Below, in pieces: positions 24,857 to 45,909 of a DNA stretch of 45,909 nucleotides. The stretch's first letter is position 1. Each line of letters starts with the position of its first letter. Source of the DNA: an uncultured Candidatus Bathyarchaeia archaeon (GTDB lineage Archaea; Thermoproteota; Bathyarchaeia; 40CM-2-53-6; RBG-13-38-9); NCBI GenBank assembly GCA_964627775.1, contig CAZVKZ010000001.1, forward strand, positions 1 through 45,909. Direction: 5' to 3'. A program made the position numbers and the translations under genes. Below the pieces are notes generated by a model. That model was not told the origin of the DNA. It did no database searches and saw only the letters and a list, made by a program, of their open reading frames with translations.

Positions 24857-24955
24857 CATCTCGAGAAGAAATGCAAAAGAAAATCTTTTAAGCTGAGCGT
24901 CAGTTACGCATTCAGAATCTAAGAGAGTTTTGCCAGCACGAGTGCCAGAAACGGA

Positions 24956-25129
24956 ATGAAATGCAAATGCTCCGAATGTGACGGCGAAATCAATATGCCC
25001 AAAGATGCCGTCAACGGTGAAATAGTCACATGCCCCGACTGCGGTCTCGAATTTGAACTATCAGTCGATGAGCATGGAAAGTGCACTCTAAAAGTCGCTG
25101 AGGTCGTCGGCGAAGATTGGGGAGAGTGA
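24956..25129 (+). CDS. lysW: Amino-group carrier protein LysW/ArgW-like (copy 2)
   Basis: Hand translation gives MKCKCSECDGEINMPKDAVNGEIVTCPDCGLEFELSVDEHGKCTLKVAEVVGEDWGE*. 57 aa with a zinc ribbon and C-terminal EDWGE. Not in the ORF track. Confidence 0.85.
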   Translation: MKCKCSECDGEINMPKDAVNGEIVTCPDCGLEFELSVDEHGKCTLKVAEVVGEDWGE

Positions 25130-25139
25130 GACGCCGTCT

Positions 25140-26000
25140 TTGGCGAAGGTTTTTTCAATAGTCTTTGACCGGACACGTTGGGAAGAGAAAGCCCTCATAA
25201 AGGCAGCCAGACGCAAGCGAATACAAACCAATCTTATTGACGCGAAGAACATCTCCTTCGACTTAGTTACTCGATGCGACACAGAATCCTTCGGCGACAT
25301 CGTACTCCAGCGCTGCATCAGCTACTTTAGAGGGTTACACATAACCGCGATCCTCGAGAAGAACGCTATGAGAGTGGTAAACTCATTCGACACATCTCTG
25401 ATCTGCGGAAACAAACTGCTCACATCTCTGGCACTTGCCAAGGCAAAAGTCCCGACCCCGAAGACTTATGTCGCATTCACTCCCGAGGCAGCCCTAGACA
25501 CCATAGACAAGATCGGATACCCAGCAGTAATAAAACCAGTCGTAGGAAGCTGGGGAAGATTGGTCTCGCCTGTCAACGACAGAGCCACGGCAGAGGCTAT
25601 CCTCGAACATAGGGAACAGATGGGCAGCTCGCTGCTCCAAATACACTACATTCAAGAGATGGTAAACAGACCTCCAAGAGACATAAGAGCAATAGTAGTG
25701 GGCGACGAAGTAATAACAGCCGTGTATCGTAGCTCGCCATTGAATGTTTGGAGAACTAACGTAGCCCTCGGCGCAACTACAACTCCATGCCCAATCACCA
25801 ATGAACTAGAAGATCACGCATTGAGAGCTGCAAAAGCCGTCGGCGGCGGAGTGCTAGCGGTGGACTCCATGGAAAGTCCGAGTGGCAACGTAGTCCATGA
25901 GGTCAATTCAACAATAGAATTCCGAGGCGCCGCAGGTGCCACGGGAGTCAACATCGCGACAAAAATCATAGAGCATCTTGTGAGCATCACCAAAAGATAA
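25140..26000 (+). CDS. argX: Second LysX/ArgX-type ATP-grasp ligase (probably glutamate--LysW ligase)
   Basis: 286 aa, TTG start 10 nt after the lysW copy 2 stop. Collinear with the LysX paralog at 23191-24048. Followed by argG. Confidence 0.75.
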   Translation: MAKVFSIVFDRTRWEEKALIKAARRKRIQTNLIDAKNISFDLVTRCDTESFGDIVLQRCISYFRGLHITAILEKNAMRVVNSFDTSLICGNKLLTSLALAKAKVPTPKTYVAFTPEAALDTIDKIGYPAVIKPVVGSWGRLVSPVNDRATAEAILEHREQMGSSLLQIHYIQEMVNRPPRDIRAIVVGDEVITAVYRSSPLNVWRTNVALGATTTPCPITNELEDHALRAAKAVGGGVLAVDSMESPSGNVVHEVNSTIEFRGAAGATGVNIATKIIEHLVSITKR

Positions 26001-27591: not shown

Positions 27592-27976
27592 AAAACAATT
27601 CTACGTGAAGTTCGAGACCCCAAAGGAAGTCACGGATAGAGCTTTCCAAGTTCTACAAATCGCAAAGGACAGCGGCAAGATAAGAAAGGGAACCAACGAA
27701 ACCACAAAAGCCATCGAGAGAGGCGTCGCCAAATTCGTACTAATCGCCGAGGATGTTGAGCCACCCCAAGTAGTCGCACACCTGCCCATCCTGTGTGAGG
27801 AAAGAAAAATTCCCTACTTGTTTGTTCCCAGTAAACTCGAGCTTGGAAGAACAGCAGGGATCGAAGTTGGTTCAGCAGCCATCACAATAGTAGAGCCTGG
27901 CGAGGCATCCGAGGCAATTAAGGGACTTATCAGCGCCACAGAGAAACTAACGAAGGGCGGTGCATCAAGCACTTGA
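27587..27976 (+). CDS. rpl7ae: Ribosomal protein L7Ae
   Basis: [10 protein letters not shown]...[13 protein letters not shown]...[20 protein letters not shown]. The ORF track begins at an upstream in-frame ATG (27572). Comparison with typical short L7Ae N-termini favours 27587. Confidence 0.85.
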
Positions 27977-28212
27977 GCAGCGCCGCAGCAAAGACGGCAA
28001 AAGAGATAGCTGAAGAGACACTGGCTCCGGCCGAGATCACACAGATCGTTGGCCGAACAGGCGTGACAGGTGAAGTCATCCAGGTAAGAGTAAGAATCCT
28101 TGAGGGCAGAGACAAAGGCAGAATCATTACTAGAAACGTCAAGGGCCCAGTGAGGCTCGGCGACACACTAATGCTCAGAGAGACAGAGAGGGAAGCAAAG
28201 AAGATTCGTTAG
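27973..28212 (+). CDS. rps28e: Ribosomal protein S28e
   Basis: 79 aa, TTG start overlapping the rpl7ae stop. [27 protein letters not shown]...[11 protein letters not shown]. Confidence 0.85.
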
Positions 28213-28225
28213 AGAGGCAGACCAA

Positions 28226-28417
28226 GTGCCGCGCACATTTAAATGCTCCTTCTGCGGAAATGAGTATCCGCCAGCTTCAGGAATGGCCCACATAAGAAAT
28301 GATGGGTCCATACTCTACTTCTGCTCAGCAAAATGCAGAAAGAGCATTCTAGAACTCCAGAGAGACGCGCGGATACTGAAGTGGACACAGCATCACGCAC
28401 GCAAAGGCCGAGAGTAA
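28226..28417 (+). CDS. rpl24e: Ribosomal protein L24e
   Basis: 63 aa, GTG start. CSFCG...FCSAKC zinc-ribbon pattern typical of L24e. Confidence 0.8.
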   Translation: MPRTFKCSFCGNEYPPASGMAHIRNDGSILYFCSAKCRKSILELQRDARILKWTQHHARKGRE

Positions 28418-28878
28418 TGGAGAGAACTCTCGTCCTGATCAAGCCTGAAGGAGTCATGAGGGGACTCATTGGAGAGATCATCTCAAGACTTGAGAGAAAA
28501 GGCCTGAACATAGCAGGCCTGAAACTTCTCATGTTGTCAAGGAGCCAAGGTGAGGCCCTCTACTCGATGCACAAGACAAAGGACTTCTTCCCCGTACTGC
28601 TTAGTCACATGACCTCAGGACCAATCATAGCAATGGTGGCGGAAGGCCCTGACGCTATAGGCGCTGTTAGAAGAATGATTGGAGCAACTGATCCACAGGA
28701 AGCCACCCCAGGAAGCATAAGAGCTGACTTCGCGTTGAACAAAACGCAGAATATCGTGCATGCAGCGGATAGCAAAGAAAACGCTGATCGCGAAATCAGC
28801 ATCTTCTTCAGACCCAGTGAGATACTCAGCTATGACAAACCTACTGAGACGAGATACCTTCTAGGACCACAAGCCTAG
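28417..28878 (+). CDS. ndk: Nucleoside diphosphate kinase
   Basis: MERTLVLIKPEGV...NIVHAADS. The ATG overlaps the rpl24e TAA (TAATG). The longer track ORF from 28333 is an out-of-gene extension. Confidence 0.85.
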   Translation: MERTLVLIKPEGVMRGLIGEIISRLERKGLNIAGLKLLMLSRSQGEALYSMHKTKDFFPVLLSHMTSGPIIAMVAEGPDAIGAVRRMIGATDPQEATPGSIRADFALNKTQNIVHAADSKENADREISIFFRPSEILSYDKPTETRYLLGPQA

Positions 28879-28978
28879 GTGTAACACGCCAGAGAAAAAG
28901 TCGCGTTGGCCGCCGATATCCGGCCAATATAATACTTAAGGAAGTCAACACCATTGGAACTGTAGAGGAGACGCTACG

Positions 28979-30789
28979 ATGCCAATGCGTCAACCGATTG
29001 TCGTAGTCTTAGGCCACACGCCACGAATGAATGGTGCGCCGCGGCGGGCTAAGTAGACCACGGCAAAACAACACTCCTCGACAAGATTAGAGGAACTTCT
29101 GTCGCAAAGAGGGAACCAGGGCAGATAACACAATGGATTGGCGCAAGTCTCATTCCGGCAGAAACGATCAAGGAGACCTATGGAAAAACACTTGAGAGAT
29201 TCAGATTCCAGATCAACATACCAGGACTATTGTTCATCGATACACCTGGCCACGAGAGTTTCTCCAACCTGCGCCGCCGTGGAGGATCCGCCGCAGACAT
29301 CGCAATCCTCGTAATCGATATGACAAAGGGTGTTGAACCTCAGACCGAGGAATCGATAGAAATCCTGAAAATGCGAAAAACACCATTCGTCATTGCGGCG
29401 AACAAAGTCGACCTAGTGCCCGGATGGAGGGATAGCGGCAAACCCATCAGTGAAGCAATCCTCCTGCAAGCGCCAGAAGTTCAAAGGGAAATTGACAATC
29501 ACATTTATACTGTGATGGGAGAAATATCGAGATTCAATCTGAACGCCGACAGATTTGACAGGATAAGAGACTTCACAAGAACGATAGCTATCGTACCAAC
29601 AAGCGCCAAAAGCGGGGAAGGCATTCAAGAACTCCTAGCGTTAGTTGTTGGCCTGACTCAATCATTCATGAAGGAAGAACTGGCAACAACGAGCGGCCCT
29701 GCGAAAGGAACCATCCTAGAAGTGAAAGAGGAGGTCGGCCTGGGCACAACTGTAAACGCAATCGTCTATGATGGCATTCTGAGGGTTGGCGATCAAATAA
29801 CTCTAGGCGGAAAAGAAGGACCGATAGTGACAAGCGTCAGAGCGATTCTGGTTCCCAAACCCCTAGATGAGATAAGAGACCCGCGAGACAAATTTTCAAG
29901 TGTACGTAGTGTCAAAGCAGCCGCCGGCATAAAGATCGGAGCTCCAAACTTGGATACGGCCCTTGCGGGCTCATCACTATATGCGATTCCCGCAGGAGAC
30001 GCCCCGAACGTCTTCACTGAGATGGTAAAAGAAGAGTTCGAAAGACTAAGAATCGAGACGGATAAAAGTGGAGTCGTCCTCAAAACCGATACACTCGGAG
30101 CCTTGGAAGCCATAACAGCCTCGCTAAATAAATCAGGCACTCCGATAAGATTAGCTGATGTTGGCGATATCTCCAAACGTGAAATCATAGAAGCCGACAT
30201 AGTGCGGGGCAAAGATCCATTACTAGGCGTAGTCCTAGGATTCAACGTTAAGCTACTCCCTGACGCTGAGGAAGAGGCAACAAGACGAAAAGTTCACGTG
30301 CTTCAGGCAGACATAATCTATGACTTAGTTGATGGTTACTCCCGGTGGGTTGCCGCAGAAAAAGCTGCGAGCATAAAAGCAGACTTAGACCGCCATACCA
30401 GGCCGGGGAAAATGCGCATTCTATCCGGTTACGTATTCAGGCACAGTAAACCAGCGATATTCGGAGTTGAGATGTTGGCTGGGACTGTCAAACAGAAATG
30501 TGCCCTGATCAACCAAGACGGGAAAAAGATTGGAATGGTCATGAGACTTCAAGACAAAGGAAAAGACATCGACGGGGCAACAACCGGGATGCAGGTTGCT
30601 GTCTCAGTCGACAAGGCTGTCGTCAATAGAAATGTCTTCGAAGGCGACACATTATACGTGGCAGTTCCAGAGCAGTCGGCCAGAGAGTTCAATAGCAGAC
30701 TCAAAAGCTACCTGACGCCTGAAGAATTGAAAGTCCTCGATGAACTTACGGAGATTATGAGAAAGGAAAACCTGCTATGGAACGCCTAA
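28979..30789 (+). CDS. infB: Translation initiation factor aIF5B (IF2-type GTPase), interrupted: exon 1 28979-29017, exon 2 29053-30789
   Basis: Exon 1 encodes MPMRQPIVVVLGH, and that frame then hits TAG at 29054-56. Exon 2 is in a different frame, which is closed just upstream by TAA at 29050-52. It encodes VDHGKTTLLDKIRGTSVAKREPGQITQWIGAS...LLFIDTPGHESF... to the stop at 30789. Joining 29017 to 29053 gives the canonical G1 motif GHVDHGKT and a 591-aa protein. Confidence 0.85.
29018..29052 (+). other. Candidate 35-nt bulge-helix-bulge (BHB) intron within the infB mRNA
   Basis: H1: A11-U54, U10-A55, U09.G56. Central 4-bp helix: G12.U50, G13-C49, C14-G48, C15-G47. Bulges: A16 C17 A18 and A51 A52 G53. 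H3: C19-G46, G20-C45, C21-G44, C22-G43 (numbers = 290xx). Both exon junctions fall after the second nucleotide of a 3-nt bulge. Confidence 0.7.
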
Positions 30790-30869
30790 CATGAAGACCA
30801 GCAATCCAAATCTCGACACATTAATATGGTTGTCACCAAGCCTAGTAGAATACCTGCTCTGATGAGTAG

Positions 30870-31280
30870 ATGACAATGGCGAAATTCAAGATCACACTAT
30901 CTGAACCTGAAACTGGCAAAGCCTCCAGTGTGGAGCTGGACGGAGCCAAAGCAAAACCATTTGTTGGAAGAGAACTGGGGGAAATAGTAGATGGTTCCCT
31001 AGTCGGCTTGGCTGGTAAGAAGATCAAGATTACCGGAGGCAGCGATAAGGACGGGATACCCCTCAGGCTCGATGTGCATGGCGGCGGTAAGAAGCACTTG
31101 GTTCTAACAAGGAGTGTGGGATTCAAAGGTGAGAAGGGGTACAGGGAAAGGAGACTTGTTAGAGGTTGTATGATATCCGAGGAAACCTACCAGATAAACC
31201 TGGCAGTAGTCAAACTAGGGGCTGACACAAAGAACATCACAAACAGACAGAAAGATAGGGAAGCTGAAAAGACCAAATGA
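30870..31280 (+). CDS. rps6e: Ribosomal protein S6e
   Basis: 136 aa. MAKFKITLSEPETGKA...ITGGSDKDGIPL. An alternative ATG lies at 30876. Confidence 0.85.
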   Translation: MTMAKFKITLSEPETGKASSVELDGAKAKPFVGRELGEIVDGSLVGLAGKKIKITGGSDKDGIPLRLDVHGGGKKHLVLTRSVGFKGEKGYRERRLVRGCMISEETYQINLAVVKLGADTKNITNRQKDREAEKTK

Positions 31281-45328: not shown

Positions 45329-45909
45329 CTAGAAGCTCTCGATATTGACGCCTGATTGGTCGATCGAGACGATGTATGGTCTGCCATCGGCTTCAGTTAT
45401 TGCCTTTGCAACTCTTTCTGTGTTCTCTGGCTCAGAGAGGGCTATCATACAGCCTCCACCGCCAGCCCCTGTGAGTTTAGCCCCAAGTGCCCCAGCATTT
45501 TGCGCAGCTTCGACTAGTCTATCGAGGTGTGGTGTTGAGACGTCTATCTCCCTCAGAAGCTCGTGATTCTCATTCATCAAGAGACCTAGCTGACGGAAAT
45601 CGCCTTTCTCATAAGCTTTTGCTGCTCTGAGCGTAAGTTGCCCAGCTGAATTGCTGATTCTAGCAAGTTCTTGATCCCCGACCTCCACACGTCTCGTTAC
45701 TTTTGTGACGAGATCGCCTGTGGACCTTTTGACACCAGTATTCCCGATAACCATGCTTATTCGGTGGGAGGCCTGCAGGCGGGTTGGCGGTTCCCCAATT
45801 TTGAAGAGGATGACACCTCCGTAGGTTGCAGTCGTGGCGTCTATCCCTGAGGGCTTCTTATGTATGAAGCGCTCCTGTACAGAAGCAGGCTCAAAGATCT
45901 CTCTCTTGT
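45329..45909 (-). CDS. mvk: Mevalonate kinase (GHMP kinase), C-terminal part; 5' end lies beyond the window
   Basis: The frame stays open past the track start (45754) to the window edge. ...KKPSGIDATTATYGG... and KLTGAGGGGCMIAL GHMP motif 3. Confidence 0.75.
   Translation of the reverse strand, partial: KREIFEPASVQERFIHKKPSGIDATTATYGGVILFKIGEPPTRLQASHRISMVIGNTGVKRSTGDLVTKVTRRVEVGDQELARISNSAGQLTLRAAKAYEKGDFRQLGLLMNENHELLREIDVSTPHLDRLVEAAQNAGALGAKLTGAGGGGCMIALSEPENTERVAKAITEADGRPYIVSIDQSGVNIESF

Follow-up and report, generated by a model that had tools for sequence, protein, structure and literature searches.

An intron in the cbf5 pre-messenger RNA of the Crenarchaeota Aeropyrum and Sulfolobus was reportedly described by Watanabe in 2002 and by Yoshinari in 2006. 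In Desulfurococcales and Sulfolobales this intron is lineage-specific, coexists with intronless relatives and has been a source of gene-prediction errors (PMC2738675, Yokobori 2009), and the same 2009 paper presented cbf5 as the sole confirmed bulge-helix-bulge (BHB) intron inside an archaeal coding sequence. In 2020, a study describing a BHB intron in the 5' untranslated region (UTR) of the Haloferax volcanii HVO_1309 mRNA, a substrate of the splicing endonuclease EndA both in vivo and in vitro, still gave cbf5 as the sole additional BHB intron reported (PMC7714728). The present work concerns a stretch of 45,909 nucleotides (nt) from an uncultured Candidatus Bathyarchaeia archaeon (contig CAZVKZ010000001.1 of assembly GCA_964627775.1, positions 1 to 45,909 of the forward strand; hereafter "the window"), in which infB, the gene for the translation initiation factor aIF5B, is interrupted at 29018-29052 by a segment that is very probably a spliced archaeal BHB intron, with its two flanking helices (hBHBh'), in the aIF5B pre-mRNA. 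An earlier note on this DNA had taken cbf5 for the only well-known protein-coding case, and this agrees with the literature searched here, which gave cbf5 alone inside a coding sequence and HVO_1309 in a 5' UTR. No prior report of a BHB intron in aIF5B, in another initiation factor or in a Bathyarchaeia coding sequence was found in that literature, in which subscription journals were incompletely covered. Apparently, the aIF5B intron is a second, so far unreported, coding-sequence case after cbf5.

Exon 1 of infB (28979-29017, + strand) comprises 13 codons, from ATG 28979 to CAC 29015-29017, and its product, MPMRQPIVVVLGH, covers strand beta-1 plus residues one and two of the G1 (P-loop) motif of the GTPase. 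Without splicing, this frame continues to TPRMNGAPRRAK and ends at TAG 29054-56. Exon 2 (29053-30789, + strand) runs from VDHGKT to the stop codon TAA 30787-30789; its sequence, VDHGKTTLLDKIRG..., begins at GTA 29053 in a frame other than that of exon 1, a frame closed by TAA 29050-52 immediately upstream and offering no ATG, GTG or TTG until TTG 29230. Because TTG 29230 is the earliest start available to exon 2, both the open reading frame (ORF) list and the public gene call (P0001) give a protein of 519 amino acids (aa) without the G1 motif. The interruption lies 39 nt from the start codon, within the codons of the GTP-binding motif, and deletion of 29018-29052 (35 nt, + strand) produces a 591-aa ORF with an intact GHVDHGKT. 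At the nucleotide level the junction is unique, as a shift of one base either way alters the sequence. The spliced product scores 803.1 bits against NCBIfam NF003078 (cut-off 468; residues 3-590) and 736 bits against TIGR00491 (cut-off 554.75; end to end), and presents the Pfam domains GTP_EFTU, GTP_EFTU_D2, IF-2 and GTP_EFTU_D4 in this order. It is also the only product that combines a full-length match above cut-off to aIF5B/archaeal IF-2 with an intact G1 motif, which the unspliced ORFs lack. Its N-terminus is predicted to be MPMRQPIVVVLGHVDHGK, and an N-terminal peptide spanning the joined exons would read (M)PMRQPIVVVLGHVDHGK. The earlier note had placed the break between GH (29017) and VDHGKT (29053) and had held that excision of exactly 29018-29052 would give GHVDHGKT and a 591-aa aIF5B; every coordinate of the break was verified by reading and translating 28850-29250, and the restored protein was confirmed by translation and by the NCBIfam scores.

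In archaeal tRNA introns at position 37/38, the anticodon stem corresponds to the outer helix h, residues 32-35 to the central helix H, and residues 36 and 37 plus the first intron base to a bulge. The elements around the infB junctions follow one another from 5' to 3' as h, H, bulge, h', loop, h', H, bulge and h, and because this topology matches that of the tRNA 37/38 intron, cuts after the second bulge nucleotide are the canonical ones. All elements lie on the + strand. The central helix H, of 4 base pairs (bp), joins GGCC (29012-29015, from the codons GGC CAC) to GGCU (29047-29050). The 5' bulge is ACA (29016-29018), with a predicted cut at 29017/29018, and is unpaired in the minimum free energy (MFE) structure of the window and of most relatives; the 3' bulge is AAG (29051-29053), with a predicted cut at 29052/29053, and is likewise unpaired in the window MFE, within a 2x4 loop. 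The intronic helix h' pairs CGCC (29019-29022) with GGCG (29043-29046) through four Watson-Crick pairs. The outer helix h has its 5' strand at 28998-29011 and its 3' strand at 29054-29066: strictly, UUA 29009-11 faces UAG 29054-56 (U10-A55 and A11-U54 plus U9-G56, numbered by their last digits), and an extension pairs 28998-29009 with 29055-29066, the latter strand appearing in the window MFE as AGAC.ACGGCAA 29055-66. The BHB has been defined as a 4-bp helix between two 3-nt bulges (PMC6379350), and the hBHBh' form as one in which h and h' have at least two Watson-Crick pairs each (PMC7714728). The window presents two opposite-strand 3-nt bulges and a 4-bp helix at the exon-intron borders, flanked by helices with the required number of pairs, the widening of the 3' bulge in the MFE corresponding to a relaxed form. 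In silico, the symmetric cuts at 29017|18 and 29052|53 fall on the sole junction giving GHVDHGKT. Helix H has a pair probability of 0.62-0.68 in the window fold. In the MFE this 4-bp helix persists, as does the 5' bulge of 3 nt; the 3' site falls within the 2x4 internal loop, and the inside of the intron forms a three-way junction, with a competing pairing of 29019-23 with 29032-36.

In the mechanism that appears most likely, EndA cleaves the transcript and RtcB then ligates the exons. Codons for Val-Val-Val-Leu in exon 1 would pair with those for Val-Asp-His-Gly in exon 2 to form the outer helix h, GGCC from the Gly-His codons would pair with GGCU near the intron 3' end to form H, and the two intron ends would pair with each other to form h'; the bulges ACA and AAG, of 3 nt each, would be left on opposite strands. 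EndA, the endonuclease of tRNA and rRNA splicing, would then cleave both bulges behind their second nucleotide (29017|29018 and 29052|29053). RtcB, the 3'-phosphate RNA ligase, would subsequently join CAC to GUA, creating GHVDHGKT and the 591-aa frame, while the 35-nt intron would be released, probably in circular form. An mRNA left unspliced would give a 25-aa peptide only. From the anatomy of the locus, the restored protein and the conserved site, fold and cuts, we infer both that splicing occurs and which enzymes perform it. EndA and RtcB were present in all near-complete archaeal genomes of a 2026 study, Bathyarchaeia included, and BHB-dependent circular rRNAs have been observed in Bathyarchaeia metatranscriptomes (PMC12918454).

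The DNA of relatives comprised 4 loci, 53 species-representative genomes, 80 metagenome contigs and 5 further loci, the insert-bearing ones coming from independent NCBI, ENA, JGI and Logan assemblies. In 35 loci, the window included, an insert homologous to 29018-29052 is found at exactly the GH|VDHGKT boundary, making up 20 distinct junction sequences from about 20 related lineages; all of these loci are from Bathyarchaeia where the source record names the organism, the metagenome contigs being assigned by protein similarity only. The earlier note had proposed a BHB intron removed by EndA and RNA ligase, a reading that is supported here: the comparison of related infB loci suggested there had the outcome it foresaw, with inserts at the identical boundary and compensatory changes in the helices. 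Insert lengths are 34, 35, 36, 37, 38, 42 and 45 nt and are not biased towards multiples of three, while those of 36, 42 and 45 nt all contain in-frame stops, so that the insert must be regarded as non-coding. The flanking exons are intact, with 59-87% amino-acid identity and no further frame breaks. One JGI contig (L142; 3300022551, Ga0212089_10012715; 5.7 kb) is 99.97% identical to window positions 27730-31194, with one mismatch in 3465 nt and the intron included, and comes either from an independent assembly of one and the same population or from the very sample behind the metagenome-assembled genome (MAG). An uninterrupted GHVDHGKT occurs in about 106 loci of other Bathyarchaeia and of Hadarchaeia, and the neighbourhood is identical everywhere (L7Ae, S28e, (L24e), NDK, infB, S6e, S24e, S27ae). 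In a neighbour-joining tree of this single protein, two intron-bearing groups lie near the midpoint root. This is consistent with an old gain of the putative intron and later loss, a history whose details are beyond the resolution of a tree of one protein.

Conservation of the fold was assessed in alignments anchored at both junctions, the loops being unalignable. In the first alignment (A1), composed of the end of exon 1, 8 bases from the 5' end of the intron, 13 from its 3' end and the start of exon 2, 90.1% of the cells are paired, against 29-39% when the partners are slid by 1-3 columns; five pairs are changed on both sides, and none of 500 shuffles matches the observed paired fraction or covariation score. 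RNAalifold finds H and h' unaided. The second alignment (A2), with longer exon flanks, takes in the outer helix and its 8-bp extension, GUCGUGGU with ACCACGGC and one bulged base, and has 93.4% of its cells paired over 20 sequences, against 30-43% in the slid controls. By helix, the paired cells in A2 amount to 96% for H, where G-C/G-U exchanges are seen, 84% for h' and 98% for the 11 pairs of h plus extension. Compensatory changes on both sides affect five of the seven h' pairs across relatives, this helix appearing as CGCC/GGCG, CGUC/GACG, CGUCGU/ACGACG, CGUUGC/GCGACG, CAACG/CGUUG, CAACGUU/AGCGUUG, CACCAUUU.../...AAAUGGUG, CGUCCAUCA/UGAUGGGCG and CACCAUUUAUUC.../...GAAUAAAUGGUG. Helices are therefore kept by covariation in inserts of 34-45 nt whose loops have drifted, and site, fold and cuts are conserved throughout a deep lineage of Bathyarchaeia. 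The bulges are invariant in pattern in all 20 sequences (A-Y-A on the 5' side, A-N-G on the 3' side), and the cuts predicted from the BHB coincide with the junction required by the protein in every one of them. Folded without constraints, five relatives (L002, L006, L020, L021 and L084) have as their MFE a perfect hBHBh' in which both bulges measure 3 nt.

The exon codons taking part in the fold also distinguish the two kinds of gene. The Leu codon before GGY is YUA in 21 of 21 intron-bearing contexts and in 3 of 80 intronless ones (Fisher 8e-19), the Gly codon is GGY in all 21 intron-bearing contexts, and the Val codon that opens exon 2 is GUA in 19 of 21, against 20 of 80 without the intron (5e-8); the intron-bearing sequences are, however, related (two tree groups), and the Fisher figures, like those from the shuffles above, overstate independence. 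The contrast with the codon usage of the same gene is free of this kinship problem: the gene-wide share of YUA among Leu codons is 12-62% in intron-bearing genes, and 18 of 18 would be reached by chance with a probability of about 2e-9. Of the 11 outer-helix pairs, 10.8 are formed on average in intron-bearing genes and 7.5 in intronless homologues (p = 3e-11, a figure to which the caution on kinship also applies). These comparisons show that synonymous sites on both sides of the intron are tuned to outer-helix pairing. At the protein level, the last eight codons of exon 1 show 100% amino-acid identity over 18 distinct intron-bearing sequences, with synonymous variation present. Eight residues kept invariant through synonymous change, together with upstream elements resembling a ribosome-binding site and a TATA box, indicate that exon 1 is under protein-level selection.

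The intron has left its mark on gene annotation. All public infB calls examined for the intron-bearing clade are wrong at the N-terminus (519, 568, 583 or 589 aa), the P-loop being absent or distorted: MBS7650086.1 has 568 aa and starts with MRGTTVAK, OGD53652.1 and TRO57901.1 have 589 aa and start within the intron (MYAIANLAGQ/H-VDHGKT), the JGI calls have 583 aa and read V/M-TGHVDHGKT, and the call of the window itself gives 519 aa from TTG 29230. The same pattern emerged from a protein search, which placed the gene in Bathyarchaeia and in which every match with at least 71% identity was truncated N-terminally or oddly started (MFIDTPGH..., MRGTTVAK..., V/M-TGHVDHGKT, M/L-AGQVDHGKT), whereas matches with 65% identity or less started normally, with MxLRQPIVVVLGHVDHGKT. 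The last six intron bases (GGCCAU, GGUCAA, GGCUAU and others; 29047-29052 in the window, seen also in L002, L003 and L020) mimic the end of exon 1, GGCCAY, because the 4-bp helix H is nearly palindromic. ORFs that start within the intron consequently read G-H, G-Q or G-Y before VDHGKT and look nearly complete, which hides the intron from annotators.

Besides the kinship of the sequences, several points weigh against splicing. The earlier note had spoken of textbook hBHBh' pairings at the junctions, and all the pairings it named are present (H, both bulges, h and h'), but in the window the 3' site is relaxed and the MFE is more stable than the strict hBHBh' conformer by 5.4 kcal/mol. In the isolated 81-nt RNA, the pairs of the strict h stay below a probability of 0.02, and the stability of the local fold relative to shuffled sequences is not unusual (z = -1.38), for which reason it was dropped as an argument. 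Among 5.8 billion predicted proteins, none was found with a spliced-type (cDNA-like) N-terminus of the intron-bearing clade; in this search, made with the whole protein and then with its first 140 residues, the close matches were all truncated or started within the intron, and the complete N-termini all came from intronless lineages. Neither EndA nor RtcB was recognised by Pfam among the approximately 40 genes of the 45.9-kb window, to which that scan was confined; tolerance of relaxed motifs would depend on the type of EndA, and one of broad specificity would suit the relaxed 3' site. The gene infB itself was read within the window, and a second intact copy in the remaining genome would count on the same side.

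A residue next to the G3 motif provides a lineage signature separating spliced-type matches from intronless genes: GHESF follows DTPG in all intron-bearing lineages (DTPGHESF, window 29245-29256), and GHETF is found in the intronless relatives with complete N-termini.

Motif searches within the window illustrate how little a BHB means by itself. The loose form (3+4+3 bp) occurs 637 times on the + strand, against about 600 times in shuffled sequence; its chance per specified pair of cut sites is about 6e-5, and the motif at infB falls on the single pair that restores the protein. With an unremarkable window fold and a loose motif this common, the decisive support is therefore comparative. Other BHB-split genes were sought by scanning both strands for frame-fusing BHB motifs, with many matches that all lay at ordinary gene boundaries. 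The best of these candidates, at 25111-25147 (window 24955-25147), joins the LysW stop (..GEDWGE*) to the LysX start, that is, two ordinary genes; it has an h' of 6 bp, an h of 5 bp and a length of 37 nt, and its removal would fuse both frames. As this false positive makes clear, a BHB motif plus frame fusion is insufficient evidence when taken alone. Other classes of intervening element were also rejected for 29018-29052. A self-splicing group I or II intron would need a ribozyme core of hundreds of nucleotides where the insert has 35, and no Rfam family reached its gathering score in the window. As to an intein, the 35 nt are out of frame, and the in-frame inserts of relatives have stop codons; a true intein was seen in L112 only, at a neighbouring site.

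The interrupted frame could also be explained without splicing. The 35 nt might be junk in a dead or mis-assembled locus, and the break inside an invariant motif, in a window taken from a MAG, could be seen as a sign of a pseudogene or of a sequencing or assembly artefact. Yet 35 loci from varied samples and assemblers have their interruption at this one site, the exons are intact and conserved, covariation is found within the insert, and the second assembly, 99.97% identical, has the identical insert. The shared site, the conserved exons, the synteny and that second assembly rule out assembly error or a decaying pseudogene, and the chance of this explanation is negligible. A start within or after the insert, giving an aIF5B shortened at its N-terminus and functional in spite of lacking exon 1, is extremely improbable. 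The introns of some relatives do contain in-frame GUG, AUG, UUG or AUU codons, giving the (M/V)TGHVDHGKT or MAGQVDHGKT ORFs adopted by gene callers, but in the window UAA directly precedes Val and the first possible start comes 59 codons further on, past G1. Moreover, the place just before VDHGKT is taken variously by H, Q, K, Y or a stop, the near-palindromic helix H accounts for the resemblance to GH, and exon 1, whose RQPIVVVLGH forms the beta-1 strand of the G domain, shows perfect conservation as protein.

Two further possibilities leave the site a function at the RNA level. Ribosomes might bypass the 34-45 nt gap, or frameshift, on an unspliced mRNA. Bypassing of the phage T4 gene 60 type calls for codons that match at take-off and landing, with a stop immediately following take-off. 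A structured element does lie directly after the take-off position, and in a few relatives the last intron codon equals the take-off His codon (CAC...CAC in L024 and L052, CAU...CAU in L084); in most, however, the two codons do not match, CAC facing UAA in the window, CAA in L001 and L003, AAA in L004 and UAG in L005, and the near-palindromic GGCC helix accounts for the few cases in which they do. The codon after take-off is ACG (as in the window) or ACA, not a stop. A ribosomal hop would also need no BHB geometry, yet this geometry and the codon-boundary cuts are kept in 20 of 20 sequences, all of which makes translational recoding highly improbable. It is very unlikely, too, that the same cuts are made by another nuclease and ligase, or that the structure has some other role in RNA, such as regulatory cleavage without re-ligation. 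This alternative could draw on the relaxed 3' site of the window motif and on the cleavage of an mRNA 5' UTR by the Haloferax EndA (PMC7714728), but cleavage without ligation would forfeit an essential protein whose two exons are both under strong purifying selection, and the geometry is exactly that by which EndA substrates are defined.

If the BHB intron is spliced by EndA and RtcB as proposed, it might in addition serve as a control point, tying the output of aIF5B to spare EndA/RtcB capacity and so coupling tRNA and rRNA maturation to translation initiation. This possibility is rather unlikely. Were it true, splicing would have to outrun the first ribosomes, the intron lying 13 codons into the gene of an essential initiation factor, and the retention of the intron over about 40% protein divergence, like the tuning of the codons, would reflect selection acting either on this coupling or on some role of the released circle of about 35 nt.

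Upstream of infB, a promoter-like TATA/BRE (B recognition element) sequence, TATAATACTTAAGG, is located at 28928-28941 (+ strand), its role being suggested by conservation: a motif (A/G)TATAATACTTAAG occurs about 50 nt before the start codon in six main-clade intron-bearing relatives, and in a diverged form in others. A purine run resembling a Shine-Dalgarno sequence, GAGGAG (28965-28970, + strand), lies 8 nt before the start codon, and would have its equivalent in GGAGG, GAGGGG or GGAGAT in relatives. These elements suggest that infB has its own promoter and a short leader despite its place in a cluster of ribosomal-protein genes. The approximately 40 genes identified in the window by the Pfam scan are ordinary housekeeping genes for ribosomal proteins and for His, Leu/Ile/Val, LysW-pathway and mevalonate biosynthesis. 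No tRNA or Rfam family was detected in the 45.9-kb window, and no tRNA in 29 intron-bearing loci. A mevalonate-kinase fragment at 45329-45754 was considered as a truncated gene and discarded, its coding sequence simply continuing past the end of the window.

The P-loop of aIF5B also receives inteins. An intronless gene of Bathyarchaeia type (L112; Ga0209314_10001402, 1-982; 60% identity) contains a LAGLIDADG_3 intein ending in ...VLAHN|TTLLDK, which places the insertion at GHVDHGK|T (about window 29067/29068), five codons downstream of the intron site, and NF011418, a 1049-aa IF-2 model with intein, aligns from residue 19 of the spliced window protein, that is, from the same intein site. A remark made in passing in the earlier note, that inteins occupy the same kind of site in aIF5B, is borne out by both. 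One P-loop is accordingly the target of two kinds of insertion, an intein and the putative intron. Among the proteins compared, three aIF5B sequences of Bathyarchaeia type (P0127, P0135 and P0072; WP_455281894.1, WP_455370042.1) are labelled "[Eubacterium] cellulosolvens" in RefSeq, and locus L026 appears as "bacterium isolate Centralia_MAG_577"; these bacterial labels probably reflect archaeal contamination or mislabelled bacterial assemblies.

Judged by the literature searched, an aIF5B intron of this kind would be the first found in Bathyarchaeia or in a translation factor, and would extend the record to another gene, another lineage and another position. Codons shaped by an RNA-processing structure would offer a natural system for the evolution of EndA substrates within mRNAs, and the case bears on how splicing coexists with coupled transcription and translation. 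In practical terms, the wrong N-termini affect annotation as well as any marker-based analysis or completeness check of Bathyarchaeia MAGs that relies on IF-2/aIF5B. The locus also suggests that BHB-aware gene finding could reveal further split genes in uncultivated archaea.

In the unconventional splicing of HAC1 and XBP1 mRNA in eukaryotes, IRE1 recognises an RNA structure, tRNA ligase or RtcB joins the exons, and removal of the intron (26 nt in XBP1) changes the frame. The aIF5B insert is comparable in being a small intron in a coding sequence whose removal changes the frame; it differs in that IRE1 is not the tRNA endonuclease and acts within a regulated stress switch, whereas nothing seen at the aIF5B locus shows regulation. 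The inteins of the aIF5B P-loop (NF011418 / PRK14845) resemble the intron as selfish or neutral insertions into the most conserved motif of the same gene, but they are in frame, span hundreds of codons and are removed from the protein, whereas the intron has 35 nt, is out of frame and would be removed from the RNA. With the BHB introns of tRNA and rRNA the aIF5B element shares two 3-nt bulges and a 4-bp helix (PMC6379350, PMC7714728), predicted cuts after the second bulge nucleotide, an exonic h that corresponds to the anticodon stem and an exon that provides the 5' strand of H. The length of the aIF5B inserts, 34-45 nt, also falls within the range of 11-175 nt known for archaeal tRNA introns (PMC2738675). 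In aIF5B, however, the host is an mRNA whose h and H are built from codons, which fixes Leu as YUA, Gly as GGY and Val as GUA, and splicing must compete with translating ribosomes. HVO_1309 provides an mRNA that is an EndA substrate, as is proposed for infB, although there the intron belongs to an untranslated leader, interrupts no frame and resides in a euryarchaeal host. The confirmed precedent is cbf5, likewise a housekeeping gene belonging to the translation and RNA machinery, which has a short BHB-type intron in its coding sequence, depends for cleavage on a BHB-like structure recognised by EndA and displays the pattern of gain, loss and annotation errors seen for aIF5B. The two genes differ in that cbf5 encodes a pseudouridine synthase of Desulfurococcales and Sulfolobales, with splicing demonstrated experimentally, while aIF5B is a GTPase of Bathyarchaeia for which splicing is deduced from sequence. 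Compared with that of cbf5, the aIF5B intron is set only 39 nt from the start codon, inside the codons of the P-loop itself.

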